Assembly (NCBI GenBank): GCA_036679645.1
Contig: JAZDCY010000016.1
Span: 1-64,000 of the forward strand
Direction of reading: 5' to 3'
Source of the DNA: Gemmatimonadota bacterium
GTDB taxonomy: Bacteria; Gemmatimonadota; Gemmatimonadetes; Gemmatimonadales; GWC2-71-9
DNA length: 64,000 nucleotides
The notes below the pieces were generated by a model that was not told the origin of the DNA, made no database searches, and saw only the letters and a list, made by a program, of their open reading frames with translations. Of the stretch, positions 35,258 to 55,897 are shown one piece after another. Both the position numbers and the translations under genes were made by a program. How positions within the stretch are numbered: position 1 is the stretch's first letter; each line of letters opens with the position of its first letter.

Positions 35258-35258
35258 G

Positions 35259-35471: not shown

Positions 35472-35508
35472 TGCCGATGGTCTGTGTGCATCTGCAACCT
35501 CTGCGGTA

Positions 35509-37912: not shown

Positions 37913-39042
37913 GCGTCGCTCCGGGTGTTGTACCGGGCCAGCCAGTCGCGCCGCCACGTCTCGAACGTTCCGTCGAGGACGCGGGCACGCGATGTCTCGC
38001 CCAGGCGAATCAAGAACCGCACGTTGTGCAGCGAAAGCAGTCGGAGTCCCAGCAACTCATCGGCGACGAACAGGTGTCGCAGGTATCCGCGACTGTACGT
38101 GGTGCATGTTTCACAGTCGCAACCGGCATCGATTGGTGTCTCATCGCGCCGGAAAGCCGCGTTGCGCACGTTGAGACGGCCATCGGCCGTGAACGCCGAG
38201 CCGTTGCGCCCGTTCCTCGTGGGTGCAACGCTATCGAATAGATCTACGCCACGGGCCACCGCTTCGAGCAGGTCTTCCGGAAAACCGACCCCCATAAGAT
38301 AACGTGGGATGCCATGGGGCAATGCGGGGCACAATGTTTCGAGAATGGCGTACATCGCCGCACGCTCCTCTCCCACCGCGAGCCCGCCGATCGCGAGGCC
38401 GGACCAGGCGCGCATGCCCGTGATCGCTTCGAGCGCCCGGTCACGGAGATCGGGGAAGATCGCCCCCTGAACGATGGGCCAGAGGGTCTGCCGCTCGGGC
38501 GTAGCATTGGCCAACTCGGCGTGCCGTGCCGCGCACCGTTTCAGCCATCGCGTTGTGCGCGTGAGTGCCTCCTCGGCCTCCGGCCGCGTGGCCGTTCCGG
38601 GGACGACGTGGTCGAGCGCCATGGCGACGTCGCTGCCCAGGGCCCACTGGATTTCGACAGCGCGCTCTGGCGTGACCATGCGTCTGGCACCATCGACGTG
38701 TGACTGGAACTCGACGCCCTCGTCGGTCACGCGGCGCGAGCCGTCAAGTGAAAATACCTGAAACCCGCCCGAGTCGGTGAGGATGGGTCCGTCCCACGCC
38801 ATGAACCGGTGTAGCCCGCCCAGCGCGGCGATGGTCTCTTCACCCGGACGGACGTGCAGGTGATACGTGTTCGCCAGCACCACCTGCGTTCCAACGGCCG
38901 TGAGATCGAAGGGCGAGAGCGTTCGTACGGTCGCCTGTGTCCCGACCGGCATGAACGCCGGTGTCAGTACTGATCCGTGCGGGAGCGAGAGCGTCCCGGC
39001 GCGGGCCGCGCCGCAGGTGGCGTCGATCTGGAACTCGAACAT
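37909..39042 (-). CDS. tgt: tRNA-guanine transglycosylase
   Basis: TPAFMPVGT, NTYHL, TDSGGFQ, YLMGVG and CDCETC motifs; ATG at 39042. Confidence 0.95.
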   Translation of the reverse strand: MFEFQIDATCGAARAGTLSLPHGSVLTPAFMPVGTQATVRTLSPFDLTAVGTQVVLANTYHLHVRPGEETIAALGGLHRFMAWDGPILTDSGGFQVFSLDGSRRVTDEGVEFQSHVDGARRMVTPERAVEIQWALGSDVAMALDHVVPGTATRPEAEEALTRTTRWLKRCAARHAELANATPERQTLWPIVQGAIFPDLRDRALEAITGMRAWSGLAIGGLAVGEERAAMYAILETLCPALPHGIPRYLMGVGFPEDLLEAVARGVDLFDSVAPTRNGRNGSAFTADGRLNVRNAAFRRDETPIDAGCDCETCTTYSRGYLRHLFVADELLGLRLLSLHNVRFLIRLGETSRARVLDGTFETWRRDWLARYNTRSDA

Positions 39043-39043
39043 G

Positions 39044-39100
39044 TCACACGATAGCCATCGCGTCGCCGTAGTTGTAGAGGCGATATCGCTGAGCGACCGC
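39044..39100 (-). repeat. Duplicated 3' end of queA (left island boundary, att-like)
   Basis: 39044-39094 matches 54842-54892 at 50/51 nt; the match extends to 57 nt with 3 mismatches. Confidence 0.92.
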
Positions 39101-39119
39101 CATGACCGCCCAACCTGCG

Positions 39120-39342
39120 GTTTCAATCCACGCCCGCGCGCGAGCGGGCGACCTGGGTCTTCGCGTGTGTCTACACGCTGATGTTTCAATCCACGCCCGC
39201 GCGCGAGCGGGCGACCTCGACATTCTGAGCAACGCACTAACGACGTTTCAATCCACGCCCGCGCGCGAGCGGGCGACTCGGACATGGCGCGCGTCGTCGA
39301 TGTCCTCGCGTTTCAATCCACGCCCGCGCGCGAGCGGGCGAC
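39120..39342 (-). CRISPR. Type I-C CRISPR array: 4 identical 33-nt repeats, 3 spacers (30, 29 and 32 nt)
   Basis: Repeat (minus strand) GTCGCCCGCTCGCGCGCGGGCGTGGATTGAAAC, with plus-strand starts at 39120, 39183, 39245 and 39310. Confidence 0.97.
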
Positions 39343-39524
39343 TGACTACTGCTAACTCTTTGTAGTTGAATGGCTTCAAAAGCCGGTCGCGCGAACCGGC
39401 TCCGGGTGAGCAAGGTTGGGCTACTATCGGCGCGAGTGCAAACGGTCAAGCAGTTGTCAAAGAGCGCGTTAGCCGTGGTCGCGAACCCCAGGCGAAAGAT
39501 GCACCAGCTAGAGGTTCGCGGCTA
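39343..39524 (-). promoter_or_regulatory. CRISPR leader
   Basis: Lies between cas2 and the first repeat; has CGCGAACC...GGTTCGCG inverted motifs of the kind seen in I-C leaders. Confidence 0.75.
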
Positions 39525-39815
39525 TCAAATAATCAGCGGTCCCTCCAGATCGACGCTCGGCTTCGCGCCGTGATGCTCCACCCGATGACGCCAATTCCTT
39601 CCCAGGAAGTAGAACCGCAGGCTGTCTTCCTCAGGTCGATAGAGATCGAGCAGACGCAGTTTGAACTGCGCCCACTGTGTCGGGTCGAGCTGGCACTCGA
39701 ATACCGAGTTCTGCACCCGTTGGCCAAAGCCGACGCAGGTCTTCGCGACGTGCCTGAGGCGTTTGCGGCCCTCCCGGGTTGTCGTCGCTACGTCGTACGT
39801 CACCAAGACAAACAC
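39525..39815 (-). CDS. cas2: CRISPR-associated endoribonuclease Cas2
   Basis: [17 protein letters not shown] and DSLRFY motifs. Confidence 0.96.
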
Positions 39816-39830
39816 AATGGCGTCCTCCGG

Positions 39831-40862
39831 TTACTTCCACACGAACGCCGGATAGGCATCGAGATCGCCGCGGAGTAGCCGCGCCAGGAGCCGCGCCTGC
39901 AGGTGGATCAACAACCCTACCGTGGTTTGCTCGCCCAGGAAGGGGTGTGTGATCTCATCCTGCTTGCGCTTCTGATACGCGATCAGAACCGTCTTTCGCG
40001 TGTCCTCGGACATCTCGACTCCACCGGATTCCGTCTTGCGGAAGCCCTTCGCGTGGACCTGCTGGCGGTTGATGAGCGTGAGGGCGAGCCGATCCGCCAG
40101 GAACGGTCGGAACTCCTCGATGAGATCGAGCGCGAGTCCGGGTCGGCCTGGACGGTCGCGGTGGAGGAAACCGACCTGGCTGTCCAGCCCGGCCGCCTCA
40201 CAGGCGGCTCGCGCATCGTGCCCGAGCATGGCGTACAGGAACGAGAGCAGCGCGTTGACCGGATCCAGCGGCGGCCGGCGGTTGCGCCCGGTAAACGCAA
40301 AGCCGTCGGGCTGCCCAGTGATCAGGTGGCCGAACACGGCGAAATAGATGCTGGCGCTCTCCCCCTCGATCCCGCGAATCAGGTCGAGCCGGTCCGCCGC
40401 CTGGACCTGTTGGATGGTGTGGGCCAGACGCGCCGCCGCCGCCTGCACAGCCGCCCGACCTTGGCCCTCTGGATAGTCTCGAACGCTCCGGAGCAGCACG
40501 GTCCGTGCGTTCGCGACCTTCGCAGTAACGAGATTCCGCGCAATGACGGCGCTCCGAGACTCGTCGTCGGCGCGGCGGTACTGCTCGCGACGCAGCAGGA
40601 CGTTGCCGGGTGTGAAACCGAGCACGCGGGCAAGGAACTTCCCCTGCTCGCTCAGGAACGAGATGGCGATACCCCGTTCGGCGCACGCGTGCATTAGCCA
40701 CGGGCTGATGTTGACGAGACCGAAACACACGATCCCGCCGAGCGTGTGGAGCGGCAGCTGAAGGCGGGTCTCCTCCCCGAGTTTTACCTGGAGTGCCTCC
40801 CCGTACTTCGAGACGTACGCGCCTTGCGTCGTCACGAACAGGGTATTCAGGTGCTGCTTCAC
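39831..40862 (-). CDS. cas1: Cas1, type I-C
   Basis: LNTLFVTTQG, GNVLLRREQY, RRPPLDPVNALLS and LALDLIEEFR motifs. Confidence 0.97.
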   Translation of the reverse strand: MKQHLNTLFVTTQGAYVSKYGEALQVKLGEETRLQLPLHTLGGIVCFGLVNISPWLMHACAERGIAISFLSEQGKFLARVLGFTPGNVLLRREQYRRADDESRSAVIARNLVTAKVANARTVLLRSVRDYPEGQGRAAVQAAAARLAHTIQQVQAADRLDLIRGIEGESASIYFAVFGHLITGQPDGFAFTGRNRRPPLDPVNALLSFLYAMLGHDARAACEAAGLDSQVGFLHRDRPGRPGLALDLIEEFRPFLADRLALTLINRQQVHAKGFRKTESGGVEMSEDTRKTVLIAYQKRKQDEITHPFLGEQTTVGLLIHLQARLLARLLRGDLDAYPAFVWK

Positions 40863-41545
40863 GGTGTCGCGCCTTTTGCCTCATCGAGCGTGACGCCGAC
40901 GGCGCGGGCGAGGTAACGGGCCGCCGAGCCGCGGGCGCGCCCCATAGCATCGGGGAGGCATATGTGGAGCAGGGAGCAGCGGTCGCATTTGGGCTCGCGT
41001 CGCGCCCGCGGCGTGCGGCGCGACGTGATGAGTTCGTGCAGGCGCGCGGCCGTTCCCTCGGTCAGGCGTCTGAGCGGAGCGTCAAAGGTCACGTCATGGC
41101 GCTTCCGCGTGCGGCCGTAGTACAGGGCCCCAGCCGGAACCTCGGTGTGCAGCATGTCTTCGAGGCACAGCGCTTGGGCACACAGTTGCACCTTGTCTGC
41201 CTCGTGGCGCTTGGGACGGCCGCGTTTGTACTCGACGGGGAACACAATCTGGCTGTCGCCAGCCGCGCGGAACTCGACTATGTCTGCCTTGCCCACGAGG
41301 CCCAACCGGGTCGATCGAAGCGCCAGGCCCCGCGTGACGCGAACGCCCGACCGGGTCTCGGGCCGGCCGTCGTGCGCCTTGTCGTGCATATGACGCCCCT
41401 CGACGGTCAGGCGGTTCTCGGCCCAGAGGCCCTCGATGTGGATCAGGGCGCACTGCCGCTCGCAGAAGAGCAGGTGTTGGAGGGCGGAGATGGGGAGGAG
41501 GTCGTCCTCGGTGAAGCCTGCTTCCGCCCCACCCACAGGGGTCAC
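40859..41545 (-). CDS. cas4: Cas4
   Basis: ISALQH..FCERQ, PVEYKRG, QLCAQALCLE and C-terminal CxxCS...C motifs. Confidence 0.95.
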   Translation of the reverse strand: MTPVGGAEAGFTEDDLLPISALQHLLFCERQCALIHIEGLWAENRLTVEGRHMHDKAHDGRPETRSGVRVTRGLALRSTRLGLVGKADIVEFRAAGDSQIVFPVEYKRGRPKRHEADKVQLCAQALCLEDMLHTEVPAGALYYGRTRKRHDVTFDAPLRRLTEGTAARLHELITSRRTPRARREPKCDRCSLLHICLPDAMGRARGSAARYLARAVGVTLDEAKGATP

Positions 41546-41955
41546 GGACGGACTTCTCCAGGCAACTCCGCGAGAATCGCGTCGTTGAGACGCCGTGCCA
41601 GTGCCAGCGCCGCGCGCGGCTCATCCGGAGCCGGCTCGGCGGGCTCTCCCGGGTAGCGGAACTTCCAGGCGTAGTCGGTAAGGCCTCCGCTCTCGCGGAT
41701 CACCTGCTCGAGGTCCGGCGCGATCTCAAGCACCTGGCGCCCCAGATCGGCAATGTTGTGCGTCTTCCGAAAGATGCGTCCGTGCCACGTGAGGAAGCCT
41801 TTGAGCGCCTTCTCGGCAGCCTGCTGGCAATGGAACAGGGCGTCTCCCGCAAGTGGCGGTTCGACGTTGCTGATGAGCTCCGCGGCGCGCAGGTCGTTCG
41901 CCGCCTTGATCAGCCATGCGCGGGTCTCGGCAACGAACTCGGGATCAAGCGGCAT
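41542..41955 (-). CDS. HEPN-domain protein
   Basis: FHCQQAAEKALKG, KTHN and RYP motifs. Confidence 0.88.
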   Translation of the reverse strand: MPLDPEFVAETRAWLIKAANDLRAAELISNVEPPLAGDALFHCQQAAEKALKGFLTWHGRIFRKTHNIADLGRQVLEIAPDLEQVIRESGGLTDYAWKFRYPGEPAEPAPDEPRAALALARRLNDAILAELPGEVRP

Positions 41956-42301
41956 GGAGCAGCTTCCCTTCGCGCAAGACGGTCGCTGGGAGAGAGGCGG
42001 GTACGCGTGTGCGGCGATCGAACGCGGTGCTGGTCCACACGATGACATCCGCCGCTGTCCCGATCCCCCACAGCGCTTCGTGGGCCAGCCGGGTGCCCCG
42101 CCGGTCCGGTGTAGCGTCGTCGGGCACGATCACCATGAGATCGTAGTCGCTGTCCGCGTCGGCGTCGCCGCGGGCTTTGGAGCCGAATAGGTAGACGCGC
42201 TCCGGGTCGTATGCGTCCACGAGGCGGCGGACGATCTCGGCAAGCGCCGGATCGCGGTCTGGGAGCTGGCCCGTGGGCCTTCCCTGAGACTCAGGCATCA
42301 T
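41945..42301 (-). CDS. Minimal nucleotidyltransferase (MNT)
   Basis: LFGSKARGDADADSDYD motif. Confidence 0.9.
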   Translation of the reverse strand: MMPESQGRPTGQLPDRDPALAEIVRRLVDAYDPERVYLFGSKARGDADADSDYDLMVIVPDDATPDRRGTRLAHEALWGIGTAADVIVWTSTAFDRRTRVPASLPATVLREGKLLHAA

Positions 42302-44719
42302 GAACGATCATCTTGCCGGAAGGCACGCGATAGTTGACCAGGCGTACTCGGAAGCACTCACACTACCCATGCGCTCGTGTCCTTCTGGCTCAGCAAGTGT
42401 TCCTGCCGCAGGACGCCAGCCATGTAACCGAGAAAGTCGGCCTGGTACTCCAAATCGCCCAGGCCGTATAGCCCCAGGCCCCGATCGTAGCGGTCGGTGT
42501 GAAGCTTATCAAGCCCGAGGTCGATGATCCGCCCAGGCCACATCTGGACACTGTAGGTCAACAATTCCGTCGGTGAGATTTTCTTTCTGTTCCGCACTGC
42601 CTGTGCCAGGCCTGCATCTACAATGACTGTCGCCGTCTGCTGCGGGATAACGCGGCAGAGGTGCGCGACTCCCCGTCGGCAGTGGCCGTGGGCATATGGT
42701 CGGTACTCCATGCGGTTCTCATCCTCGATCAGTTTGCGCGCTTGGTCCTCAGCGCCAGCCGTCCATTCCTTCCGCATGGCTTCCGTCGCGAGCCAGGTTG
42801 TTCCCAGCTCGGGATCGTTGAGTTGGCTCCTACTGATGCGGTGGAGTGCTCGCCGAGGCACCTCGAAGGCAGGATTTCGTCGGAAGCGGGCGTCGCGGAG
42901 TCGAAGGTCCCAGACCTCCACCTCCTCCGCGTACTCGCCACCCCGGTTGACTCGACCGCCGACCTGAATCAGGCTGGCGGTGGACGCCGATTCCCGGAAG
43001 CCGGTACGGAACGACAAGTCCATCCCGGCTTCTACACAACTGGTTGCCACAAGGACCCAGTCATCGATCTTCCCTTCCTGCAGGCGAAGCTTCATCCGCT
43101 TCACAACCAAGTCCCGATGAGCGGGCGCAAGAGCAGTCGAAAGATGTAGCACGTCGTGGCCGGCTAGGCGCATCGCTCGTGCAACTACCGCGGCCGTCTG
43201 CACGGTGTTGACGACGAGTAACCGCGGACCAGGCTTCTCCGACACGAACTTCAGAAGTCCGTCCAGGTCAAGAGCCGGCTCCAGTTCATCCTGATCGGCT
43301 TCATTCTGGCCCGCTTTGGTAATCCTGCGCTCCACGCGGACGCGCCGACCTTCCGCTCGTCGGAGCTCGTCCCTGAGCTGTCTGTTGCCTACGAGATCCG
43401 GCACGGGCGGCATTCGCTTCTCGGATCCCGTTCGGATCAGCTCCCGGTACTCGGGAAGCTCCCAAAACCGCGGCAGCGAGCCGCTAGCGAGTACAAGGTG
43501 CCCACCCCAGTCGTCTGTCCACGTCTCCAGCCATCGCCACACCTGTGGCCAGAGGTGCGAGGGCATAGCCGCGTGCATCTCGTCCACGAAGACGGCCGAT
43601 CCTGGCAACTCGTGCAGCTTTCGCAACCGGGCTGGATGATGGCTGCCCAGGGTTTCGAAGAATTGCACCGCAGTCGTGACAATGATTGGCGCCTTCCACA
43701 GCGTTGCGAGTTGTCGCAGCTCCAAGTCCTCGAAGTCGGCCCGGTGGTGATGCTCGGCGACCACGTCTTCCGGGCGCTCACCCTCCAGCACCAATGCCTT
43801 GCGGTACACGTCCACAGACTGTGTGATGATGTTCGTGTACGGCAGGACGACAACGATGTGGCGCAACTGAGGTTTTCCTTCGGTCGCCACGCGCAGGAGG
43901 TGGGCCATTACTGCCGTCGTCTTGCCGCTCCCCACCGGAGCATCGCAGGCACGGATCGCTGGCTCAATCGCGGCATCCCGGCAGGCTTCAAACACCCGTC
44001 GGCGCGCTTCATTCCGCTGCTGTTCTCGTGGTTTCTTTCCCTTCGGTAACCCGTCGACGTACCGCTGCAGTGCCGCCGCGCGCTCATCCCATCGGGTCTC
44101 GATGCCCGGCGTCTCGACCTCACCGCCATAGTGCCGTGCCGTGTCACCATGGTCAGCGTCTACGAGGCACGATAGGGCCAATCGACGGGTAAAGCCGCAC
44201 GGCTGCAATGCCTTCGGTTTAGCCTTCGGTAACTCCGGACAGCCAGCCGAACGGTGGAGATTCCGATACCCGTCGAGTCGGCCTTTCGCATCGACGTGGT
44301 CCGCTACAACAAGACCACCTGGGGTCTCGCGCCTTAACTGGCGGAACGGTCGCCCCTGTGGTTCAAGGAAATCCTCCTTCAGACTGAACAGCCCGGCATG
44401 ATGAGCGGCGACTAACGCTACCGATTCCTGCCAGTTAAGGCGATCCAGTTCGGCCACGCCTGCGTCCTCATGCGCAATCACTAACCGTTTGCGTGAACTC
44501 TGCTGCGGATTTCGGACCCATTCGGACACCTGTTTCGGAATCATCCGGACACCCATTTCGGTTTTATCCGGACACCTGTTTCGGAGCCATCCGGACACCC
44601 ATTTCGGACATTCGGACACCTGTTTCGGAGATGTCGGACACCTTCGCTGAGGGAGTGGGCGCTGGATAACTGAGGCGGATTCGGTCTCACTTCAGGGACT
44701 TTTCCCCGGAGTGATGCTG

Positions 44720-46366
44720 ATGCCCGCTCGGAGGTTGTCCATGCGCAAGATCGTAGACCTGCTGCGGTTGCAGGCGGAGGGGCTGAGTGTGCGGCAGGTG
44801 GCCGACAGCTTGGGCCTGCCGCGCAGCACCGTGGCCGACTACATGGGCCGGCTGAAGCGGGCCGGGCTGACGTGGCCGCTGCCGGATGAGGCGGACGAAG
44901 CGGAGCTTCTCGAGCGGCTGTTCGGCGCCGAGCGCTCTCGGGCTGGTGAGCGGCCGATGCCGGACTGGGCGACGGTGCATGCCGAGCGCAAGCGACCGGG
45001 TGTGACCCTGCACCTGCTGTGGCTGGAGTACAAGCAGGTCCATCCCGAGGGGTATCAGTACACTCAGTTTTGTGAGTACTACAAGCGCTGGCGTGCGCGG
45101 CTCGATCCCGTTTTACGGCAGGCCTACAAGGCGGGAGAGAAGGTGTTTGTCGACTACGCCGGTCAGACCATGCCCGTCGTCGACGGCGAGACCGGCGAGG
45201 TGCGGCAGGCGCAGATCTTCGTCGGGACCCTAGGAGCGAGCAACTACATCTATGCCGAGGCCACGTGGACGCAGCGCCTGCCCGATTGGACGGCCGCGCA
45301 CGTGCGGATGTACGAGGCATTCGGAGGTGTCCCGGCCCTGACGGTGCCCGACAATCTGAAAACAGGCGTACGGCACGCCTGCTACTACGAGCCGGATCTC
45401 AATCCCACATATCAGGACCTGGCCACGCACTACGGGACGGCGGTGCTGCCGACGCGGGCGGCCAAGCCCCGGGATAAGGCCAAAGTGGAGACCGGCGTGC
45501 AACTGGTGGAGCGCTGGTGCCTGGCCCCACTCAGGAACCACACCTTCTTCAGCCTCGCCGAGTTGAATTGCGAGCTGCGGACGCATCTCGACACCCTCAA
45601 CGAGCGACCGTTTCAAAAACTGCCCGGTACCAGACGGCAGCTCCTCGAGACGCTGGAGCGGCCGGCCTTGAAACCCTTGCCGCCGACGCCCTTCGAATAC
45701 GCCGAGTGGAAGAAGGCCCGCGTCAACATCGACTACCACGTCCAGGTCGATAGCCATCTCTACAGCGTCCCCTACATGCTCGTGCGTCAGGAAGTGGACG
45801 TGCGCCTCACGGCGAAGACGGTAGAGGTGTTGCACCGCGGCAAACGCGTCGCGGCCCACCGGCGTAGTCATCGTCCGGGCCGCTTCACTACCGAGCCGGG
45901 CCACCGTCCCAAATCCCACCAGCGGCATCTCGAGTGGACGCCATCGCGGCTGATACGCTGGGGAGCCACGCTGGGGCAGCACACCGGCGAACTCGTTGCA
46001 CACATCCTCGAGAGCAGACCCCATCCCGAGCAGGGATACCGCGCCTGCCTCGGCCTCCTCAGTCTCGCGCGCAAGTACGGCCCGGAGCGAGTCGAAGCCG
46101 CGTGCACGCGCGCCCTGCGCACTCGGGCAACGACCTATCGATCCGTGAAATCGATCCTCGAACATGCACTCGATCGTCTGCCGTCCGAGGAGGAGCAGAT
46201 CACCCTGTCGCTTCCCGCCGACCACGCCCATGTGCGCGGGTCGACCTATTACGCCACGCTCACTACAGCAAACCATCGACCGCATGCACGAACTGCGATT
46301 GACGGGCATGGCCCAAGCCCTCGACGAACAACGGGGCCAACCCGATCTGCACGACCTCGCCTTTGA
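44720..46366 (+). CDS. istA: IS21 transposase
   Basis: N-terminal HTH; VFVDYAG, VPDNLK, PRDKAKVE and YSVP motifs. Confidence 0.93.
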   Translation: MPARRLSMRKIVDLLRLQAEGLSVRQVADSLGLPRSTVADYMGRLKRAGLTWPLPDEADEAELLERLFGAERSRAGERPMPDWATVHAERKRPGVTLHLLWLEYKQVHPEGYQYTQFCEYYKRWRARLDPVLRQAYKAGEKVFVDYAGQTMPVVDGETGEVRQAQIFVGTLGASNYIYAEATWTQRLPDWTAAHVRMYEAFGGVPALTVPDNLKTGVRHACYYEPDLNPTYQDLATHYGTAVLPTRAAKPRDKAKVETGVQLVERWCLAPLRNHTFFSLAELNCELRTHLDTLNERPFQKLPGTRRQLLETLERPALKPLPPTPFEYAEWKKARVNIDYHVQVDSHLYSVPYMLVRQEVDVRLTAKTVEVLHRGKRVAAHRRSHRPGRFTTEPGHRPKSHQRHLEWTPSRLIRWGATLGQHTGELVAHILESRPHPEQGYRACLGLLSLARKYGPERVEAACTRALRTRATTYRSVKSILEHALDRLPSEEEQITLSLPADHAHVRGSTYYATLTTANHRPHARTAIDGHGPSPRRTTGPTRSARPRL

Positions 46367-47030
46367 GGACCGGCTCGCCCTGCTCGTGGAACGCGAAGCC
46401 ACCGCCCGGGCCGATCGCAGATTGACCCGGCTGCTGCAGCTCGCAAAGCTGCGTCTCCAGGCGAGCGTCGAAGAACTCGACTTCAAGACCCCTCGTGGAC
46501 TCGATCGCTCGGTCATGTTACGGCTCGCTGGCTGCGACTGGATCCGCCAGCATCAGGTCGCCCTGCTCATCGGAGCCACGGGCACGGGCAAGACCTTCAT
46601 CTCCTGTGCCCTCGGCCACAGTGCCTGTCGACAGGGACTGCGGGTGCGCTACGTCCGGCTGCCTCGTCTCTTGCACGACCTGGCGCTCGCCCAGGCCGAC
46701 GGCTCCTACGGCAAACTCTTGACCGCCTTAGCGAAGACAGAACTCTTAATAATCGACGACTGGGGCCTGGCACCGCTCGGTGATCGCGAACGCCGTGACG
46801 TGCTCGAAGTCATCGAAGATCGCTACGGCCGCCGGGCCACGATCGTGACCAGCCAGCTCCCCGTCGAGCACTGGCACGAACTCATAGGGGACCCCACCTT
46901 TGGGGACGCGATCCTCGACCGCCTCGTGCACGGTGCACATCGGATCACGCTGAAAGGCCGGTCGATGCGCCGCAAGGAAACGACCAAGAAGGAAACGAAG
47001 AAGAAACCGACAACGAAAGAAGGAAACTAG
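46284..47030 (+). CDS. istB: IS21 helper AAA+ ATPase (start uncertain)
   Basis: GATGTGKT, IIDDWG, TSQLP and DAILDRLVH motifs. Confidence 0.92.
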   Translation: MHELRLTGMAQALDEQRGQPDLHDLAFEDRLALLVEREATARADRRLTRLLQLAKLRLQASVEELDFKTPRGLDRSVMLRLAGCDWIRQHQVALLIGATGTGKTFISCALGHSACRQGLRVRYVRLPRLLHDLALAQADGSYGKLLTALAKTELLIIDDWGLAPLGDRERRDVLEVIEDRYGRRATIVTSQLPVEHWHELIGDPTFGDAILDRLVHGAHRITLKGRSMRRKETTKKETKKKPTTKEGN

Positions 47031-47385
47031 GCCAGCACCCACACCTCGGTGTCGGTGTCCGACATCAGCCGAACGGACTGTCCGACTTCAACCGAACCAG
47101 GTGTCCGACATCAACCGAACTGGGTGTCCGGATGCACCGAAATCCGCACTCTGCCGAAGTACCGCCTGATTAGCCTCGTCCAGTTTGCCGAGGTCGTGGT
47201 ACAGCGCCGCCGCATCGACCCAGCCAATGAAGGCTTCCTGGTCACCGGCGTAAAACGCGACGGCGCGCTGAGCATTACCCACCGTATCGCGACGGACATT
47301 GGTGACGTGCGCGACGTACGTCTGTGCCGACACGCCATCCCGCCGGCTATGTGCTAGAGGCGGATCGCTCGACATCGCCGCTGCC

Positions 47386-48393
47386 TTACAGGAGCTGGCT
47401 GCACCACTCCGGCAGTTCGACACACAGGTCATACAGCTTGGCGTTCCTCAGGACGCCGTGGAAGTCATTCGGCAGCGCCCTGGGCACATCGTACTGATCG
47501 GTGAGTGGAACTTGGTCCGTTGACGGCGGCATTCTCTCGTCGTCCCTGGGTTCCCACTTCCGTTTCGGGGTGAGCTTCTCGATGAATTCGAATTCCGAGA
47601 ATGAGCCGAGGCTGTATTCGCTGCCTGGCTCGTTCTCGTGCTCGGCGTACCAAGCATGGCGAACGTCAACCATGCCACGTGGCGCGGACCGAGTATGCGG
47701 GTACGCGTAGCGGATCAGGCCCAACATGAGCGCGATGTCTTTCGCAGTACAGCCACTGTTCCTGGCGGCCGTCGGGTTGACAAAGAAGGGCATGCAGTAG
47801 ACACCGTGCTCGACGATTCGACTTGCCAGCGGCGCCATGCCGCGATCCTTCGACTCCTGAGCGCTAGCCTTCTTTGTGAGGGTGTCCCGAAGCACTCGCA
47901 CCGGAGCGGCCGATACGCCGATCGGAAAATGCGCGACGCCAGTGCGGATGTACTTGCGGTCACCAGCGGTGCTGCGCCTCCCGCCCTCAGGTGCGTCCTC
48001 GCCCTTCTCAAGAAAGGTGGCTCCGAAGGTGCGAGCGTCCCAGTACTTGTTCGCCACCTTGTTGGGGTCCTCATCGATGAGTTCAACGACTCTCTTCCAG
48101 GCTTCGGCGGCTTCCTTGACGTCAGCGAAGCCGCGCTCACGGGATTCGAGAATGGAGAACTCATCGTCATTCAACCGAAACTGACTCTTCAAGTGCTGCC
48201 AGACGTCGCCATCCTTCTGCTCTACCAGATCCCGCATCTTGCGCTTGAAAGACACCCCCGTGATGTATCCACGTCCGTCGTGATTTCGCTGGCGCGGGTC
48301 GCTCTCGCGATCCGGGTCGCCGTTGGGGTTCGAATTCCGCACCTCGATAACCAGCAGGCCGGTGGCTCGGGCAATACCGTGCTTCGCGTTCAT
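47386..48393 (-). CDS. cas7: Cas7, type I-C (Csd2)
   Basis: NSNPNGDP..PR, KRKMRD and YWDARTFG motifs. Confidence 0.9.
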   Translation of the reverse strand: MNAKHGIARATGLLVIEVRNSNPNGDPDRESDPRQRNHDGRGYITGVSFKRKMRDLVEQKDGDVWQHLKSQFRLNDDEFSILESRERGFADVKEAAEAWKRVVELIDEDPNKVANKYWDARTFGATFLEKGEDAPEGGRRSTAGDRKYIRTGVAHFPIGVSAAPVRVLRDTLTKKASAQESKDRGMAPLASRIVEHGVYCMPFFVNPTAARNSGCTAKDIALMLGLIRYAYPHTRSAPRGMVDVRHAWYAEHENEPGSEYSLGSFSEFEFIEKLTPKRKWEPRDDERMPPSTDQVPLTDQYDVPRALPNDFHGVLRNAKLYDLCVELPEWCSQLL

Positions 48394-48812
48394 TGCGTAC
48401 TGTCCTTCCCGTTTTGGCCATGTTTCTCATCCGGCGGTGAGGCGAGGAACCCGAGAAGGAGCTGGGCCTTCGCTACGTCGTCTACCTCGATCGGCAGGTC
48501 GGCGGCGCCGAGTGTGGCCGCGAGCGGCTGGTACTGCCGCAGCTTCTTCCTAGCCTCATTGACGGCGATCCGTTGCTGCTCCCTTTCCTCGCCCTGTGGC
48601 GTCTGGGCCGTCTTCGCCCACCGCACGTACTCCATCATTCGTTCGCCGAGGTCGGCAACCGCGGCCGCGGGGTTGTCCAGGGCTCGGCGCATCAGGGACG
48701 TGCCGATCAGGGAATTGGGCAACTGGCCCTTGCGAACAACGGTGCAGTAGTCCTTGTGCAGTGTGTCGGCCAGCGCCAGGACCTGGCCAACCTGGTACGG
48801 CGCATTCTTCAT
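48390..48812 (-). CDS. cas11: Putative internally translated Cas11 small subunit (140 aa)
   Basis: AAAGGAG-6 nt-ATG in frame inside cas8c. Confidence 0.65.
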   Translation of the reverse strand: MKNAPYQVGQVLALADTLHKDYCTVVRKGQLPNSLIGTSLMRRALDNPAAAVADLGERMMEYVRWAKTAQTPQGEEREQQRIAVNEARKKLRQYQPLAATLGAADLPIEVDDVAKAQLLLGFLASPPDEKHGQNGKDSTQ

Positions 48813-50603
48813 GTACTGCTCCTTTCGATGGCCGAGGGCGTCGAGCAGGATCGCGGAAACGGCTACCGCCCGCAGTGCTACCTCGTCTGAGAACCGTGCG
48901 TAGTCAGGTCGTGCTCTGTGCTTCTTCTGAGCCCTCAGGGGTCCGTAGGCGTGCTGGGCGCCGAAGACGCCGATCAACAGCGGCGTGAGACGCCGGACAA
49001 GCATCCTCAGCATCGACCGCGCTGCTGGCTCCCCCTTGCCCTCTGTTCCAAGCATCACGTCGAGCACCTCGCCGAGCCCCGGCCCGACGACCGCCGCCGA
49101 CTCGCTGCCACCACGCGCCCACTGATGCGACAGCAGCCGCACCACTTGGTCCGGATACGGTGGGAACGGCTGACCCTCGCCTGCCTCCAGTTTCTTCCCG
49201 TTTCGCGTCTCTTCAGGCAACCACAGCCGCACCTGCGGGGCATTTCGCTTCACCGCCTCAACCCACTTCTGAGCCGCGTCCAGCACTTGCTGAACGGTTG
49301 GTGATTCGGCTAAGACGACCTGAGCTTGTCCCTTTGACATCTCCCTGATCACGAATAGCTGAAGGCGTGACTTCGGGTGTTGCCTCGCAACCCCCTTCAA
49401 CGCTCGGACCAGAGCGGCGGCATCGACTTCGAATCGTTGTTCGTCCACACCCATTCCGCCACCGATGTATCGTGCGGTGTTGGCGTCAAGAGCAGGAGAG
49501 TCTTCGACGTAGGCGATAAGTACGTCCGGCTTCTCGACCTGCTGGCCCCCTGCCGATTCGAACCGGCTGCTCCCGACGAACTCCCAGGTCTGGCCTTGGC
49601 GAGAATCAGCGGTGATGAACTCGAGTGCTTCCTTCAAACAGTCAGCGCGGGCCTTGGCAATGGTGCAGCGAGCTGCGCTGAACATCGAGGAAAGCGGAAA
49701 GCGCTTTCGTCCGATCTTTTGCTTCCTCATGGAATAGACAGGAAGGTCGATCTTTGGAAGCGTTTCCCGCTCGAGGGCGGCCGCTTCACCAGTGAGCGCA
49801 TCGATACCAACCGTCGCGCTGTCCTTCTGGGTGTGCGAGTGCTTCCACGTTGGCTCGCGTGGCAGATGCTCCCTCAGCAAGTTGCCAATCCTCTCGCTGT
49901 AGAGAGGATGACTGAACAGATTGGGGTCGCTCACGTCAAATGCCAGTTGGACGGTCATCGTTGGGCGGCGGCCGTTTTCATCGGGCGGGCCTTTTCCTAC
50001 GAGCAGCTGTTCGACCTGGTCGATGGCGGAGAGCGTTCCTTGCTTGAGCCCTGCAAGGGCGACCTCGCCGATGCTGGAAAGTAGCGTGTCGGGTTGCTGC
50101 GCCGCGATCACAAAGCGTTTGCCAAGTGCTGCAACGACCTGGCCCTGGTCGTTCATCTGTTGAGCGCACTTCACCAGTTCGTTGGCCTTGCGGTCTCGGA
50201 GTCGGACCCACAGGTCCTGCGTCCTTTTGGACCAGAGACACACGGATCCCTTCTGTGACGCTTCCTCCAGAGTCGTGACACGCCGAGCATCATCCAGAGT
50301 TCTACGCCGTCTCTGATGCTTGTCGAAGCCAAGCTCTTGCCAGACATCGGCAGAGACCTCCGAGAGTGGCTGCTGCACGCGAACGACGGGAAAGCTGTTC
50401 TGGTTACCTTCCATCACAGTCCACGACGGCCAGTCCTCGTGCGTTACTTCTTCAATCGCCACTACTTTGCCTTGACTGTTCAGCCTGACGCGCAGGCATG
50501 GCGCTGAGCGACCGGGTTCTGGAACGCGCCTATGCTTCCGTTCTAGCCGAAGCGAGGGTGTTCTTTCCAGCGCCTGCCAGAGCCGCCATGTCTCATTGAG
50601 CAC
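48390..50603 (-). CDS. cas8c: Divergent Cas8c-like large subunit
   Basis: Lies between cas5 and cas7; C-terminal YQVGQVLA...LLGFLA helical domain. Confidence 0.75.
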   Translation of the reverse strand: MLNETWRLWQALERTPSLRLERKHRRVPEPGRSAPCLRVRLNSQGKVVAIEEVTHEDWPSWTVMEGNQNSFPVVRVQQPLSEVSADVWQELGFDKHQRRRRTLDDARRVTTLEEASQKGSVCLWSKRTQDLWVRLRDRKANELVKCAQQMNDQGQVVAALGKRFVIAAQQPDTLLSSIGEVALAGLKQGTLSAIDQVEQLLVGKGPPDENGRRPTMTVQLAFDVSDPNLFSHPLYSERIGNLLREHLPREPTWKHSHTQKDSATVGIDALTGEAAALERETLPKIDLPVYSMRKQKIGRKRFPLSSMFSAARCTIAKARADCLKEALEFITADSRQGQTWEFVGSSRFESAGGQQVEKPDVLIAYVEDSPALDANTARYIGGGMGVDEQRFEVDAAALVRALKGVARQHPKSRLQLFVIREMSKGQAQVVLAESPTVQQVLDAAQKWVEAVKRNAPQVRLWLPEETRNGKKLEAGEGQPFPPYPDQVVRLLSHQWARGGSESAAVVGPGLGEVLDVMLGTEGKGEPAARSMLRMLVRRLTPLLIGVFGAQHAYGPLRAQKKHRARPDYARFSDEVALRAVAVSAILLDALGHRKEQYMKNAPYQVGQVLALADTLHKDYCTVVRKGQLPNSLIGTSLMRRALDNPAAAVADLGERMMEYVRWAKTAQTPQGEEREQQRIAVNEARKKLRQYQPLAATLGAADLPIEVDDVAKAQLLLGFLASPPDEKHGQNGKDSTQ

Positions 50604-51276
50604 GGTGTACCTCCGGCGGCGTCGGGTGCTCGTAGGACATCACCCCGTTGACGATGCTCCAGTTCTGCTTAAAGGCGGGGTTCAGTTGACGGCGCTCCCA
50701 CATCGAATGCAACAGAGATGGTATGATGTCGTTGATGCTCGCCTCCGGTGCGGTGCCTTCGCGGAACGTGCCGAAGTAAGTGGGGACGAACTCCTTCCAT
50801 CCCAGACAAGGCGTGTAGAACGTCTGTCCGTGTGTCAAACGCTTCTCAAAAAGTCGCTTCAGCTCTGGTGCCCAGTCCTTTCCACGGCGGCGCCTCAACT
50901 GGGGACGGTCCTTTCCAACGGTGCTGCGCTTGACGCGCATCACACCATAGATGCGGTAGCAGACGTCCACGAGAATAGTCGCGTTGAGCTGGTAATTGTT
51001 GTTCCTCCTGATTTGGTCCTGCTTACGAAGGGGGCCACCGTAGTTGGTCACGTAGCGCTCGTATCTGATCGGGCAGCAGATTTCTACACGGGTCGGGTGG
51101 ATGTACGCGTGGGGCCGCCAAACCACTGCGTCAAACATTCCCCTGGCCGCCGAATACGTGGGCACTGGATACGAAATCGGCGTTGCCCCGGTATCGGGCC
51201 GCGTGAACATTGCCGCCGGGCCAGCGACCTCAAGTTGGACTACGTATTGAGTGTCGCTCCGGGACGGGTTCGGCAC
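50593..51276 (-). CDS. cas5: Cas5, type I-C (Cas5d)
   Basis: GPAAMFTRP, SYPVPTYSAARG, LVDVCY and PCLGWKEF motifs. Confidence 0.92.
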   Translation of the reverse strand: MPNPSRSDTQYVVQLEVAGPAAMFTRPDTGATPISYPVPTYSAARGMFDAVVWRPHAYIHPTRVEICCPIRYERYVTNYGGPLRKQDQIRRNNNYQLNATILVDVCYRIYGVMRVKRSTVGKDRPQLRRRRGKDWAPELKRLFEKRLTHGQTFYTPCLGWKEFVPTYFGTFREGTAPEASINDIIPSLLHSMWERRQLNPAFKQNWSIVNGVMSYEHPTPPEVHRAQ

Positions 51277-51519
51277 AGTGTCTCCTCGCTCCCTCCGAGA
51301 CGGTGTAGCTCTCTTACGGTACCATCACTCCTGTCTCCTGGCGGAGTCGAGTACGCCACCCCGCGGATCGCCTTTCCGGCCCGTCCTGCGCCCGCACAGG
51401 GTCGCGTGCCCACGCCGCCTCCGTATTGACATTCCGCACGTCCCTCCTACCGCTACCTGCCTCCCACCCACTCACGCCTGGAGTCGTATCATGCATCGCT
51501 CTGCTACCGCCTCGCGGCC

Positions 51520-51873
51520 TCAGGTCTCTTCAGTGGGCTCCGACAACAGCGCGCCCGTCCGCTCGACCAGGCCGGGGAGTTCATCGCTGATGACCTGCCA
51601 GACAATCTCGTGGTCCAGCATGTCGTATCCGTGAACCAGGATGTTACGAAAGGCCACGATGCGGTCTACCTCACCGGCCCGCGCTGCGATCTCGGGAGTC
51701 ATTCGATGTAGCCGGTTCATCGCTTCGCCGATGATCTGGAGGTTGCGCTCCACCGCCTGACGCACCAGCCGGTTCTCCAGATACTCGGCCAGCGACGACT
51801 GCGCCGTGGCCTCGAGGACAAACGAGCCGGCGTCGCGGACGTCTTCCAAGAGCTTCAGCGCCTCAGGCTGCAT
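51520..51873 (-). CDS. DUF86/HepT-type HEPN RNase toxin
   Basis: AVERNLQIIGEA and RNILVHGY (RX4H) motifs. Confidence 0.9.
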   Translation of the reverse strand: MQPEALKLLEDVRDAGSFVLEATAQSSLAEYLENRLVRQAVERNLQIIGEAMNRLHRMTPEIAARAGEVDRIVAFRNILVHGYDMLDHEIVWQVISDELPGLVERTGALLSEPTEET

Positions 51874-52171
51874 ACAACTCCTGGCGGCTCCGCTCGACTG
51901 CCGCAATGAAGTACGGGTTTCTCAACGACCGGCGCGTGAGGAGATCGACGTCCCGGGCAAGAAGTTCCCGGAGCCCGTCCCAGAGACCGAAGTATTGATC
52001 CGCCAGCGTCATCTCCCCGGTATGCTGGAACTCCACCAGGAGATCCAGATCACTGTGGTCGGGGTCGAACGCGCCAGTGGTCGCCGAGCCGAATACGTCG
52101 AGCCGAGAAACGTGGTAGCTGCGGCAGAGCTGCTGGATGGCCGCCTGGTTCTGCTCAAGCAATGATATCAT
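51863..52171 (-). CDS. MntA-like nucleotidyltransferase antitoxin
   Basis: VFGSATTGAFDPDHSDLD, VDLLT and NPYF motifs. Confidence 0.9.
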   Translation of the reverse strand: MISLLEQNQAAIQQLCRSYHVSRLDVFGSATTGAFDPDHSDLDLLVEFQHTGEMTLADQYFGLWDGLRELLARDVDLLTRRSLRNPYFIAAVERSRQELYAA

Positions 52172-52558
52172 CTGCTCTTGCCTCGCAGCTGTGGGACACC
52201 CGCCCCGAGCGGACCCGAAGAGACACCGAAGCGCCGACCTTGGCAAGGTGTCTCATTCCGCCCCCTACGCGAGTTGGCAACACCGTCACGAGCGTGCCAA
52301 TACGGCGCTGCATCCAAGGCGCTCTCCCTAATTTCCCCTCCCGCCGCTCCCGCCCCACCACGCCCCGCGCCCTCCGCCGCTCGGTGTCCTCCAGGGATTC
52401 GTAGGCGTAGTTGTTGAGAAAGCTCTCCAACAGCTCGAGCTCCACCCGTGCACGTCGCGCAACTGCCGGATGGTCGGATCCGCGATCGTCGCTGTAGCGC
52501 CGGCGCGCCGTCTACCAACTGCCATCGGGATCTCCCTCCGTCGTTTCCGCCGACCTAA

Positions 52559-52791
52559 CATCCCTCGACGGTCATCATTCCACTCACCACCAATCCGACA
52601 GACGATGCGGAGCCTCTCCGCGTGCGTGCCCCCCCGGCGGACGATTGCGCGGGGACCCCGATCTGCTGATCGACCAGCTCCGAGCCATCGACAACCGCCG
52701 CCGGATACGAGGCCCGCTCACCCGCCTCGACGGCGCCCTCATGCGGCGTGTCGGATTGGCCATCCGTGAGGTCGTCGATCTGGTCGAGTAG
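52559..52791 (+). pseudogene. PemK/MazF toxin remnant
   Basis: HPSTVIIPLTTN...[frameshift at a C-run]...DLLIDQLRAIDNRR...REVVDL*; the 5' end is missing. Confidence 0.75.
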
Positions 52792-52870
52792 CGCCCGTTG
52801 CCGATGCAGCGACGGACCGCCAGCCCAACTCCACACAAGATCACCCCCCCTGTGACACTCCACCCGCGAA

Positions 52871-53638
52871 TCAAGCCACCCCGAGCGGATCCACAGGCAC
52901 AACCTGCCCCACGCTATCCAGATGCCACCGGCCCCCCTCCGCCAGTAACGTGCACCAGAGGTCCCAGCCCCTCTCCAGCAGCGCGCCGGCCCGCACCGGC
53001 ACCTTGATCGGGCCGTAAAGAGCCGGCTCCTGATACCGCGGCCGCAGCCACAGCAGCCCGGGCTCGATCCGTGTTACCTCAAAACAGGTATGCTCCGCGT
53101 CGGCGTCGAGGTCCCACACCGGAGCGCGCCCGCGGCACGCGCGAGCCAGTCGTTTCTTAGCCCGCTCGGCCCGGAGCAGTTTGCCCTGAAGACGGCGGGC
53201 CAGCCGCGCTATGTCGGCCGCCACTGTTGCATCCACGTACCCCTCGTCCGCTAACCACAGCGCAAACTGCTCCAGCTCCGGTAGCAGCTCGGGCGTCTGC
53301 CTCAAGTGAAGCAGCATGGTGTCGCCCAGCCATGAGATCACAAACTCCCGCAGCACCGTCGGCAGGTGTTCGCGGCCGACGCTCTCGCCGCGCGACGCCC
53401 GTGCATCCCCTGGTTGCCTCGTGGGGTGCCGCGCGTGTATCTGATGCTCGCCGCAACTCGGCTGCTCCAGTCCGGGATCGGCGTCGTGCAGATAGATAGA
53501 GAGCGCAGCACAGAGCTGGGTCGCATCGCGGCCCTGTCCAGAGGCCGCCAGCTCATACGCGGCGCCGATTTCGTCGATCGTGGGCGATGCCCCCTCCGGG
53601 ACCGGAGGCTGAGCGACGCCGCGATTCCAATACATCAC
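52871..53638 (-). CDS. Hypothetical protein
   Basis: 255-aa ORF with protein-like composition, preceded by a purine-rich SD-like stretch. Confidence 0.65.
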   Translation of the reverse strand: MMYWNRGVAQPPVPEGASPTIDEIGAAYELAASGQGRDATQLCAALSIYLHDADPGLEQPSCGEHQIHARHPTRQPGDARASRGESVGREHLPTVLREFVISWLGDTMLLHLRQTPELLPELEQFALWLADEGYVDATVAADIARLARRLQGKLLRAERAKKRLARACRGRAPVWDLDADAEHTCFEVTRIEPGLLWLRPRYQEPALYGPIKVPVRAGALLERGWDLWCTLLAEGGRWHLDSVGQVVPVDPLGVA

Positions 53639-53668
53639 GATTCCCTGTCTTGCTCCTGCACGAGGGCC

Positions 53669-54670
53669 CTAATGGTCCGCCCGGCCTCCGCTCGCACGCC
53701 CCTCCTCAACCAGCTTGATCCGCCGTTCCCGAGGCCCGAACGCCGCCGGGAACCGCACCACCCGATCGTACAGCGGCGCCCGCCGCATCATGTGCTCGTC
53801 GTCCGCCGGCGCGTCTGGCCCCCAGCTCTCGGCTTCCGATGGCCATTCCTCGATGAGCCCCATCGAGGCGAGCGGGATCAGGAAGCCGAGTTCCACCGTG
53901 GTGCCAACCAACCAGGGTGGGACGTCCTGCACGTCCCTCGTCCACGGAGGCGAGAGCATGAGGCCCAGCTCGGCGGGAATCCACCAGTTCCCGTCCACCT
54001 GTCCGAGACCCCACATCTCGTAGGCCTCGCCGCCCTGGTGCATCACTGGCCCTTCAGGGAGCGGAAGCAGCAGCGTGTCCCGCACGTTTGCGTTGCGGAA
54101 CAGCGCGCGGAGCAGCCGCGTGTAGAGGGATCCTGCGCCTTCGGGCGTGGCCAACCGCCGGCCCAGTGGGGTCAGCTCGTAGCTCCCAGTGCGCACCCGC
54201 AGACAGCCGAGATAGCGGGCCGTCTCCCGCATCTGCGTAACCGGCAACCACTCCTCGCCGCGCATCCAGGGGGGCTCCTCGTCGTCCTCCAGCAAGTCGG
54301 CATCCTCCGGTCCTGGCGGCGGGGCGCTGCGCGACCAGAGGCGCTCGCCGAGGGTGGAGGCGAAGTGGCCCTCGAACGTCCCATCGCGCCGCGCCGGTAC
54401 GCGGCCCGCGTCGGCCAGGGCCAGGAGCAGCTCGCGCAAGTCGGCGAAGTAGCTCGCATCCCCCAGCTCGTCCAACCGCACGTTGCGGTTCAGCCGCAGC
54501 GGTCCCCGCGTGTACCAGTCGCCGGCCAGCAACTTGCGGACCTCGGACGGCGACAGGCCGAACAGATCGGGACGCCGCGCGTAATCCTCGGCGTCCACCG
54601 CGGGATGGGAGCCGAGCTGCTCGAGTAACAGGCGGCTGTCGCGCGCTTGGGACGGGAAGGCGTGGCGCAT
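53669..54670 (-). CDS. Hypothetical protein
   Basis: ORF with protein-like composition; YELTPLGRRL resembles a winged-helix wing. Start chosen at MRHAF. Confidence 0.65.
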   Translation of the reverse strand: MRHAFPSQARDSRLLLEQLGSHPAVDAEDYARRPDLFGLSPSEVRKLLAGDWYTRGPLRLNRNVRLDELGDASYFADLRELLLALADAGRVPARRDGTFEGHFASTLGERLWSRSAPPPGPEDADLLEDDEEPPWMRGEEWLPVTQMRETARYLGCLRVRTGSYELTPLGRRLATPEGAGSLYTRLLRALFRNANVRDTLLLPLPEGPVMHQGGEAYEMWGLGQVDGNWWIPAELGLMLSPPWTRDVQDVPPWLVGTTVELGFLIPLASMGLIEEWPSEAESWGPDAPADDEHMMRRAPLYDRVVRFPAAFGPRERRIKLVEEGRASGGRADH

Positions 54671-54841
54671 TGCCCGTCGCACACGGGTCGCGGTGGTTGT
54701 ACCGGTCCCGGCCCATCGCTCGTTTGACACGAAGGTGAATCTGCATCCCGAGACGTGCGGCCGAAACCCCAATTGGGCGCGTGTCGCATTTTGCGTGTTG
54801 CCTGTTGCACTTCTGCGGCACCCGCTCTGTAGCCCGACTCC

Positions 54842-55897
54842 TCACACGATAGCCATCGCGTCGCCGTAGCTGTAGAGGCGATATCGCTGAGCTACGGCCT
54901 CCCGATACGCCGCCATCGCATGGTCGTATCCCGCGAATGCCGCAACCAGCATCAGCAGTGTCGATCGCGGCAGATGGAAATTGGTAAGTAACCCATCGAT
55001 AACACGGAATGTGTATGGGGGGTGGATGAACAGATCGGTCCATCCCGATCCCGCCACGATACCCGACGCTGCGCCGTCGCTCGCCCGAGTGCTCGCGGCT
55101 ACCGTTTCCAGCGTCCGTGCAGCGGTGGTCCCGACAGCCCAAATACGGTGCCCGGCCGCCTTTGCGCGATTGACCGTCTCCGCCGTGCGTTCCGATACCG
55201 CGTACCACTCGGCGTGCATCACGTGTTGGGTGGGATCATCTACCTCTACGGGCTTGAACGTGCCCGGCCCGACATGCAGCACGACCTCCGCGATCTCCGC
55301 GCCGCGATCACGGATGGCGTCCAGCAGGTCGACAGTAAAGTGCAGGCCGGCGGTTGGCGCCGCGACGCTCCCTTCTTCACGGGCGTACACAGTCTGGTAG
55401 CGCTCGCGATCGGTCTCGTCGGCGGGACGCTCGATGTAGGGAGGCAATGGGACCGCGCCGTACCGGTCCATGAGCGTGGCGACATCGAGTCCGGCAAAGC
55501 GCATGCGACGCAGCCCGCCGCCCACGACATCGACGACGGTGCCGGTGGCGTCATCGCCAAAGGCGACCTGCCGCCCGGCCTTGAGCTTGCCACCCGGGTG
55601 CACCATGGCGAGCCAACTTCCGTCGGGCTCCTCGTGGACCAGCAGCACCTCCGCCGGGCGGCCGTTGTCGCGCACGCCGGTGAGACGAGCGGGAATCACC
55701 TTGCTCGTGTTGATCACGAGCACGTCGCCCGGTTGGATCAGGTCGGGGAAGTCGGCGAACGCCCGGTGTGCGCTGGTACCGCTCTGGCGGTTGAGCACCA
55801 GCAACCGGCTCGCGCTCCGTTCGGGCGTGGGATACTGCGCGATGAGGTCGGCCGGATACGTATAGTCGAAGTCCGCTGCGTTGTATCGTGTCGTCAC
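54842..55897 (-). CDS. queA: SAM:tRNA ribosyltransferase-isomerase
   Basis: LIAQYP, PLPPYI, YQTVYA, AAPTAGLHF, TNFHLP and YSYGDAM motifs. Confidence 0.96.
   Translation of the reverse strand: MTTRYNAADFDYTYPADLIAQYPTPERSASRLLVLNRQSGTSAHRAFADFPDLIQPGDVLVINTSKVIPARLTGVRDNGRPAEVLLVHEEPDGSWLAMVHPGGKLKAGRQVAFGDDATGTVVDVVGGGLRRMRFAGLDVATLMDRYGAVPLPPYIERPADETDRERYQTVYAREEGSVAAPTAGLHFTVDLLDAIRDRGAEIAEVVLHVGPGTFKPVEVDDPTQHVMHAEWYAVSERTAETVNRAKAAGHRIWAVGTTAARTLETVAASTRASDGAASGIVAGSGWTDLFIHPPYTFRVIDGLLTNFHLPRSTLLMLVAAFAGYDHAMAAYREAVAQRYRLYSYGDAMAIV

Follow-up and report, generated by a model that had tools for sequence, protein, structure and literature searches.

Cis-mobilizable elements (CIMEs) are decayed elements that keep their attachment (att) sites, having lost their recombination and transfer genes; those of streptococci place cargo at the 3′ end of a housekeeping gene (fda, rpsI, rpmG or rplL) between att-like repeats, with no integrase or conjugation genes, and the classical ones measure 1.2-13 kb (PMC7563491; this and the other articles cited here by accession are drawn on in part). 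The cryptic prophage e14 at the icd gene of Escherichia coli leaves its target whole, with a C-terminal pseudogene fragment (icdC) about 15 kb away that carries silent differences; e14 can be excised in the SOS response, and its excision gives a chimeric gene (PMC13626634). Insertions with long target duplication (ILTDs) bring in defence cargo of less than 20 kb, composed of restriction (R) and modification (M) genes, between variable repeats of more than 30 bp and, in the part drawn on, without an integrase (PMC2853133). The present study concerns a 15.7-kb block, hereafter the island, that lies between queA and tgt in a stretch of 64,000 nt from a Gemmatimonadota bacterium (assembly GCA_036679645.1, contig JAZDCY010000016.1, positions 1 to 64,000; hereafter the window). 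The island carries a type I-C CRISPR-Cas (clustered regularly interspaced short palindromic repeats and associated genes) system and toxin-antitoxin (TA) genes between two copies of the queA 3′ end. It is a real gene-restoring insertion, now decayed. A preliminary description, made from the sequence alone, had put it forward as a candidate for an undescribed system; this does not stand, since CIMEs, e14/icdC and ILTDs share its architecture. The structure is of a known kind, and what appears to be new is the queA 3′ end as the target.

As listed in Table 1, the last 58 nt of an intact queA gene (repeat D3) recur as an orphan copy beside tgt. The two copies are identical at 55 of 58 positions (95%) and lie 15,798 nt apart, with 15,740 nt between them; throughout the 4.05-Mb assembly, the orphan is the sole other match to the last 210 nt of queA (E 5e-20). 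The repeat consists of a firm 51-nt core with one mismatch (50/51 identical) and a 7-nt edge with two, and the exact runs measure 28, 22, 2 and 3 nt, the longest being 28 nt. Both differences at the 5′ edge are silent (GCC/GCG and GTA/GTC), while the third (AGC/AAC) changes Ser to Asn, so that the C-terminal motif reads YSYGD in the gene and YNYGD in the orphan. Among 161 motif matches (each overlapping locus counted by itself), this column holds Ser in 159 and Asn in none. The stop codon of the orphan is followed by one nucleotide and then by the ATG of tgt. Thus, the duplication of the queA end about 15.8 kb apart and the three codon differences, as first described, were confirmed. An assembly artefact was rejected: contigs of sequencing run X1 cross both junctions unbroken (37500-39152 and 51712-57400) with zero differences. 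X1 is the only public run found and is possibly the source sample, in which case it gives no independent support.

In relatives, the gap between queA and tgt is shorter than 500 nt in 24 of 29 loci and shorter than 1.5 kb in 27 of 29, and a relative of the same genus (G002) has an empty queA-tgt site, so that the empty site is known at genus level. Since queA and tgt are adjacent in most relatives, the 15.7-kb block is an insertion into the queA 3′ end that leaves the gene whole, as had been proposed. The island Cas8c has no match in any of 200 genomes of the host family, and the island's GC content (0.640) is only slightly below that of its flanks (0.656).

Is the queA end used in this way elsewhere? 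I searched 740 distinct genomes of the phylum with a profile of the last 40 QueA residues at thresholds from 0.05 to 1e-4; four unpublished genomes (G352, G449, G588 and G602) enter only this count. Among the matches listed, follow-up covered genomes with more than one match and part of those with a single weak one. Judged from the match tables only were G140, G215, G236, G241, G295, G371, G421, G431, G454, G570, G573, G580, G593, G597, G603 and three more weak ones. Among the matches listed, firm duplications are present in three of the 740 genomes, namely the genome of the island (G000), G139 and G424. On contig C186 of G139, the 10.5 kb of cargo behind queA contains five attC-like repeats; next come an inner queA piece of 72 nt, a TA-like pair, a queA end of 44 nt and the beginning of tgt. 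In G424, a 2.2-kb stretch with two genes of secreted type follows queA, and after it come a copy of the queA end (208 nt, 82% identity), a gene for a kinase and finally tgt. Thus, comparison of the junction across relatives gave both the empty sites and the other cargo that the preliminary description had suggested looking for; it had also suggested looking for integrases beside other queA-end duplications, and such duplications exist, but an integrase accompanies none of the three. A same-genus genome, G001, has a 72-nt queA end before tgt with other cargo upstream, and its assembly holds no intact queA; it is suggestive only as a further duplication and may reflect gene loss. Several genomes with multiple matches were set aside: G039, G119, G136 and G266 (contig overlaps or a tandem overlap), G193 (frameshifts), and G157, G162, G522 and G611 (second full queA genes or paralogues). 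No queA duplication was found in E. coli (5425 chromosomal places in 5425 genomes, with a query from a distant queA) or in phage and plasmid sets.

The G139 and junction loci show further features. The attC-like repeats of G139 C186 stand between small genes (L041:1020-8276) with no integron integrase on the contig, as a cassette array stranded at the queA end. Contig C114 of the same genome (L042:9169-17861) has a second orphan queA end with the first 60 tgt codons, 98.6% identical, after a block of type I restriction-modification, Fic and HipA genes. In genus g29, the queA-tgt junction holds differing inserts of 1.5-4.5 kb without duplication (L110, L111, L112 and L136), as a general variable site.

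Silent and non-silent codon differences between the two ends number 2 and 1 in the island, 4 and 2 in G139, and 20 and 12 in G424, where the orphan runs for 68 codons without a stop. Since a duplicated end that drifted neutrally would accumulate mainly non-silent changes, both ends were likely once functional alleles, one brought by the incoming DNA and the other displaced by it, as judged from the codon pattern. This pattern is silent on which enzyme made the insertion.

From queA to tgt, the island holds two hypothetical genes, an MNT-HepT pair, cas5, cas8c, cas7, cas3, an MNT-HEPN pair, cas4, cas1c, cas2, a leader and a CRISPR array (Table 1). The first account had listed cas, TA, insertion sequence (IS) and hypothetical genes with no recognisable recombinase, and family scans agree; it had not mentioned that an IS21-family element splits cas3 or that the array ends about 19 nt before the orphan. 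As in type I-C systems, there are cas5c, cas8c, cas7, cas4, cas1c, cas2 and an array whose repeat ends in ATTGAAAC, and no cas6. The canonical type I-C operon is led by cas3, whereas here the order is cas5-cas8c-cas7-cas3. The island further differs in its divergent Cas8c, in the MNT-HEPN pair between cas3 and cas4, and in lacking the intact Cas3 nuclease-helicase expected of type I-C. Cas8c has 116 homologues, some with PF09709, in a family mostly without Pfam matches.

Table 1. Features of the island and its flanks, in order from queA to tgt (positions in the window)
Feature	Position	Strand	Evidence or remark
queA, intact, 351 aa	54842..55897	-	Pfam Queuosine_synth 1e-129
Gene copy of the queA 3′ repeat, attL-like	54842..54899	-	probably supplied in part by incoming DNA
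Hypothetical protein, 367 aa	53669..54772	-	no Pfam, NCBIfam or PADLOC match
Hypothetical protein, 255 aa, wide unnamed family	52871..53638	-	94 homologues (clusters)
MNT (MntA-like) antitoxin	51863..52246	-	NTP_transf_2 4e-10; NF047752 7e-7, below cut-off
HepT-like HEPN toxin	51520..51906	-	PF01934 1e-19
cas5 (Cas5c)	50593..51276	-	PF09704 2e-9; PADLOC Cas5c 1.5e-24
cas8c, divergent	48390..50603	-	PADLOC PDLC01562 5.9e-135; no Pfam match
cas7	47386..48393	-	PF05107 2e-44
cas3, 5′ part, start of HD nuclease domain	47155..47432	-	Cas3c PDLC01765 positions 9-67; TIGR01596
IS21-family element (istA, istB) in cas3	44504..47148	+	NF033546 and NF038214 over cut-off
cas3, 3′ part, rest of HD and helicase	42358..44503	-	PDLC01765 positions 69-579, 1e-81
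Second MNT	41945..42301	-	NTP_transf_2 1e-9
Second HEPN	41542..42048	-	PF05168 1e-16; true start probably near 41950
cas4	40859..41545	-	TIGR00372 over cut-off
cas1 (type I-C)	39831..40862	-	TIGR03640 499 bits, cut-off 385
cas2	39525..39815	-	PF09827 3e-25
CRISPR array	39120..39342	-	four identical 33-nt repeats; spacers 32, 29, 30 nt
Orphan copy of the queA 3′ end, attR-like	39044..39101	-	probably the displaced host end; Ser to Asn
tgt	37909..39042	-	Pfam TGT 1e-144; start codon 1 nt past the orphan stop

The IS21 element has terminal inverted repeats, 23-nt subterminal repeats and a 6-bp target duplication (44498-44503 and 47149-47154); an istB piece on contig C22 is 95% identical to its istB. 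The cas3 halves match consecutive stretches of one Cas3c profile in the same reading frame. Since the HD nuclease domain is cut, interference is probably lost, and little or no CRISPR interference is expected. The IS21 element was rejected as the mobiliser of the island, since it is present as one copy inside the island and has a target duplication of its own. CRISPR-associated transposons carry Tn7-like tns/tniQ genes and have ends that enclose the cas genes; here such features are absent, and only istA and istB were found, with their own ends inside cas3.

The array, the only one of its repeat in the assembly, has short spacers and lacks a degenerate terminal repeat. Two related arrays end in a degenerate repeat, unlike that of the island; four perfect repeats stopping near the orphan thus suggest a deletion at the tgt-side end. 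The spacers have no full or near-full match in the rest of the genome, viral contigs gave no exact match to spacer 1, and the whole array gave chance matches only against phage genomes. With no spacer target in these searches, CRISPR-guided or spacer-mediated integration was rejected. Other genomes share the CRISPR repeat and the order MNT/HEPN-cas4-cas1-cas2, in loci without queA or tgt. In other Gemmatimonadota loci (L128 and L132), cas4 is likewise preceded by an MNT/HEPN gene. Directly behind the array lie tgt, yajC, a fused def-fmt and thiamine genes (34466-39342, - strand). No terminator was found on the - strand within 38900-39600, and these genes may be transcribed from the CRISPR leader.

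A cryptic recombinase among the hypothetical proteins was sought through the Atlas, homologue searches, Pfam searches on 42 family members, PDB profiles, and two structure models with fold searches, which gave none. The Atlas look-alikes of the 367-aa protein (score 0.90-0.91) carry PF27146 Y4jL_N, which is a lead only. The model of the 255-aa protein (mean predicted local distance difference test score 84.5) has a predicted helical N-terminal part or bundle and a barrel resembling an oligonucleotide/oligosaccharide-binding (OB) fold. No fold match reached E<=0.001; the best rows were OB folds, and no recombinase catalytic fold was among them. A PDB profile search gave only myoglobins at E>0.09. 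Two of the 42 family members weakly match Phage_int_SAM_3, an integrase N-terminal domain (best E 0.005).

How does the island compare with the described structures? At 15.7 kb it exceeds the classical CIMEs, from which it also differs in target and phylum. Integrase, relaxase, coupling protein and VirB4 families are absent among the scanned island open reading frames, as in CIMEs, but no parental integrative and conjugative or mobilizable element, and no integrase for the queA site, was found in the 740 genomes among the matches listed. Reportedly, e14 encodes its own integrase. The island shares with e14 the duplicated 3′ end and the restored gene, whereas it has no site-specific recombinase of its own and no excision joint in the X1 contigs, and its 58-nt repeat has a near-invariant residue changed. 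As in ILTDs, the insert (15,740 nt) is shorter than 20 kb and the duplication (51-58 nt) longer than 30 bp, but the cargo is CRISPR-Cas and TA instead of R and M genes, with no R/M homologues. Moreover, the same gene end is reused, the copies look like two alleles, and an IS21 element lies inside.

The leading reading, to which I give a probability of roughly 0.45, is that the block is a decayed, CIME-like remnant of a site-specifically integrated element that lost its integrase. The gene-restoring geometry, the empty site in relatives, the allele-like copies and a left edge common to two families argue for it; the 208-bp copy of G424 and the inner fragment of G139 both start at this edge, about 204 nt before the stop, as expected if a replacement segment of fixed extent had come in. 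A directly repeated 7-mer about 70-90 nt upstream of the G424 orphan presumably resembles integrase arm sites. A circle with a queA 3′ segment would have crossed once with the chromosomal queA, as e14 does at icd, and the incoming element likely supplied its own replacement queA end. This queA segment was perhaps about 200 nt in length, as it is in G424. A deletion on the tgt side would then have taken away the greater part of the orphan, together with the end of the CRISPR array and the genes for recombination; the integrase was likely lost later in this way, by deletion. The signs of decay are the IS21 element in cas3, Asn at the near-invariant Ser and the array without its degenerate end repeat. 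Such a remnant would be unable to excise itself and would have little or no interference. Renewed movement would require either the arrival of a related integrase-bearing element in one of its ends (CIME-type cis-mobilization) or a rare recombination event between the repeats.

Several results weigh against a lost integrase. An integrase is present in none of the three fully assembled duplications (G000, G139 C186 and G424), and no integrase-bearing element was found at the queA 3′ end in the 740 genomes among the matches listed or in 56 viral loci. Likewise, 80 metagenome tgt loci gave no orphan queA end and no integrase-bearing element at the site. The duplication lengths differ (44, 58 and 208 nt), and the cargo of G424 is unlike a mobile element. 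The left edge that G139 and G424 have in common falls on the first conserved column in the C-terminal block of QueA and may mark only where similarity becomes visible; a second profile (residues 276-315) gave no new inner fragments in 301 genomes beyond that of G139. Inside the island, no further queA fragment (score 25, against up to 33 for shuffles) and no arm-like repeat at its queA end were found. Neither a crossover point nor arm sites were identifiable in its repeats. The preliminary description had offered a defence island that lost its integrase as one of two possibilities; this part holds as the leading reading, while the phylum has yielded no integrase-bearing element at the site.

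A close rival, only somewhat less likely, is that no integrase was ever involved and that a DNA circle or fragment with the queA end of a relative and the cargo downstream of it was inserted by host recombination at the conserved queA end, as in an ILTD. The absence of an integrase from the three complete cases and the variable duplication lengths favour it, as do the unrelated cargoes (CRISPR/TA, a cassette array and secreted-type genes). The most conserved 60-nt segment of queA lies about 180-120 nt before the alignment end (0.73, against 0.72 for a central segment; 29 relatives). Insert and repeat sizes agree with two of the three ILTD criteria in PMC2853133, and E. coli has a described mobile island with short repeats and no recombinase (PMC5426353). 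On the other hand, the insert has no restriction-modification genes, the defining ILTD cargo, and the left edge is common to G139 and G424, which belong to different families. RecA works poorly on sequences of different species that are about 70-82% identical and share short exact runs, and large cargo laden with TA, IS and CRISPR genes is typical of mobile-element remnants. A broader proposal, which seems less likely than not, makes the queA 3′ end a landing pad that needs no integrase: DNA bearing a queA end of its own would be inserted there repeatedly by host recombination, with the gene left intact, and could be released again as a circle through the repeats, so that defence islands would spread phylum-wide without encoding a recombinase.

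It is improbable that the island is a working non-autonomous element whose excision and re-integration depend on a recombinase acting in trans, encoded either at another place in the genome or by a visiting element, the other possibility first offered. The repeats are still recognisable, with 50 of 51 core positions identical, and a helper could be missing from an assembly that is 92.7% complete. However, the nine tyrosine-recombinase matches of the genome (XerC, XerD, two broken integron-type ones, one of them split in two, one IS91-linked and three beside tRNA genes) include no candidate helper, and no large serine recombinase was found in the genome. There is also no third copy of the site in the genome, Cas3 is broken and the orphan is mutated. 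A search for the excised circle or the empty site, as had been advised, gave no same-strain joint in the contigs of the one run X1, which drop rare variants. For excision to restore a normal QueA, the crossover would have to lie within the last 28 nt; one in the upstream block of 22 nt would bring Asn to the Ser position, so the earlier prediction of a restored queA holds in part. The two frameshifted integron-type integrase genes lie elsewhere in the genome (L226 and L227; C86 and C33 of G000).

Equally hard to credit is a local duplication of the queA end followed by piecemeal accumulation of cargo that was never one mobile unit: the patchwork of GC content (59-62% in cas5, cas7 and cas8 versus 68-70% in the two hypothetical genes), the cas loci of like order away from queA and tgt, and the 1.5-4.5 kb duplication-free inserts at the junction in G031, G035, G367 and G522 would fit it, yet the orphan should then have drifted neutrally, whereas in each of the three genomes most differences are silent, a sign of a second allele.

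Integration near queA is also seen in other elements. Enterobacteria-like prophages (IMG/VR L049, L051, L055, L057 and L058; Hafnia phage Meifeng, MW749008) resemble the island in being integrated at the queA-tgt junction, but they are tailed prophages with a tyrosine integrase and a palindromic intergenic site of 21-23 bp, do not duplicate queA codons and belong to another phylum. This site (L057:1240-1290, L058/L114 of G318, and L117) is a palindrome with 7-nt arms around a 7-nt core; it is duplicated at both ends of one 48-kb prophage and also stands beside the integrase of Hafnia phage Meifeng. Among isolate prophages, many have one end just upstream of queA and an integrase located about 100 nt from the queA start (L061-L098). 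The viral contigs with QueA C-termini (56 loci) were set aside as prophages beside queA, not within its end. The literature search found no paper on tyrosine-integrase prophages at the queA-tgt palindrome and no report of queA as an integration target, although the TIGER island catalogue may list queA; the sole paper found that combines queA, attB and integrase concerns, in the part drawn on, a tRNA-Leu island near tgt-queA (PMC2647930).

The island copy is probably a decayed fossil and not a working new system, and its CRISPR system probably cannot cut DNA. The queA 3′ end joins the list of gene ends used for gene-restoring insertion. If the origin by an integrase is true, an integrase family whose target is a near-universal conserved gene awaits discovery, with a possible use in genome engineering. 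If the insertion was made without an integrase, island finders based on integrases would miss a route by which defence loci move.

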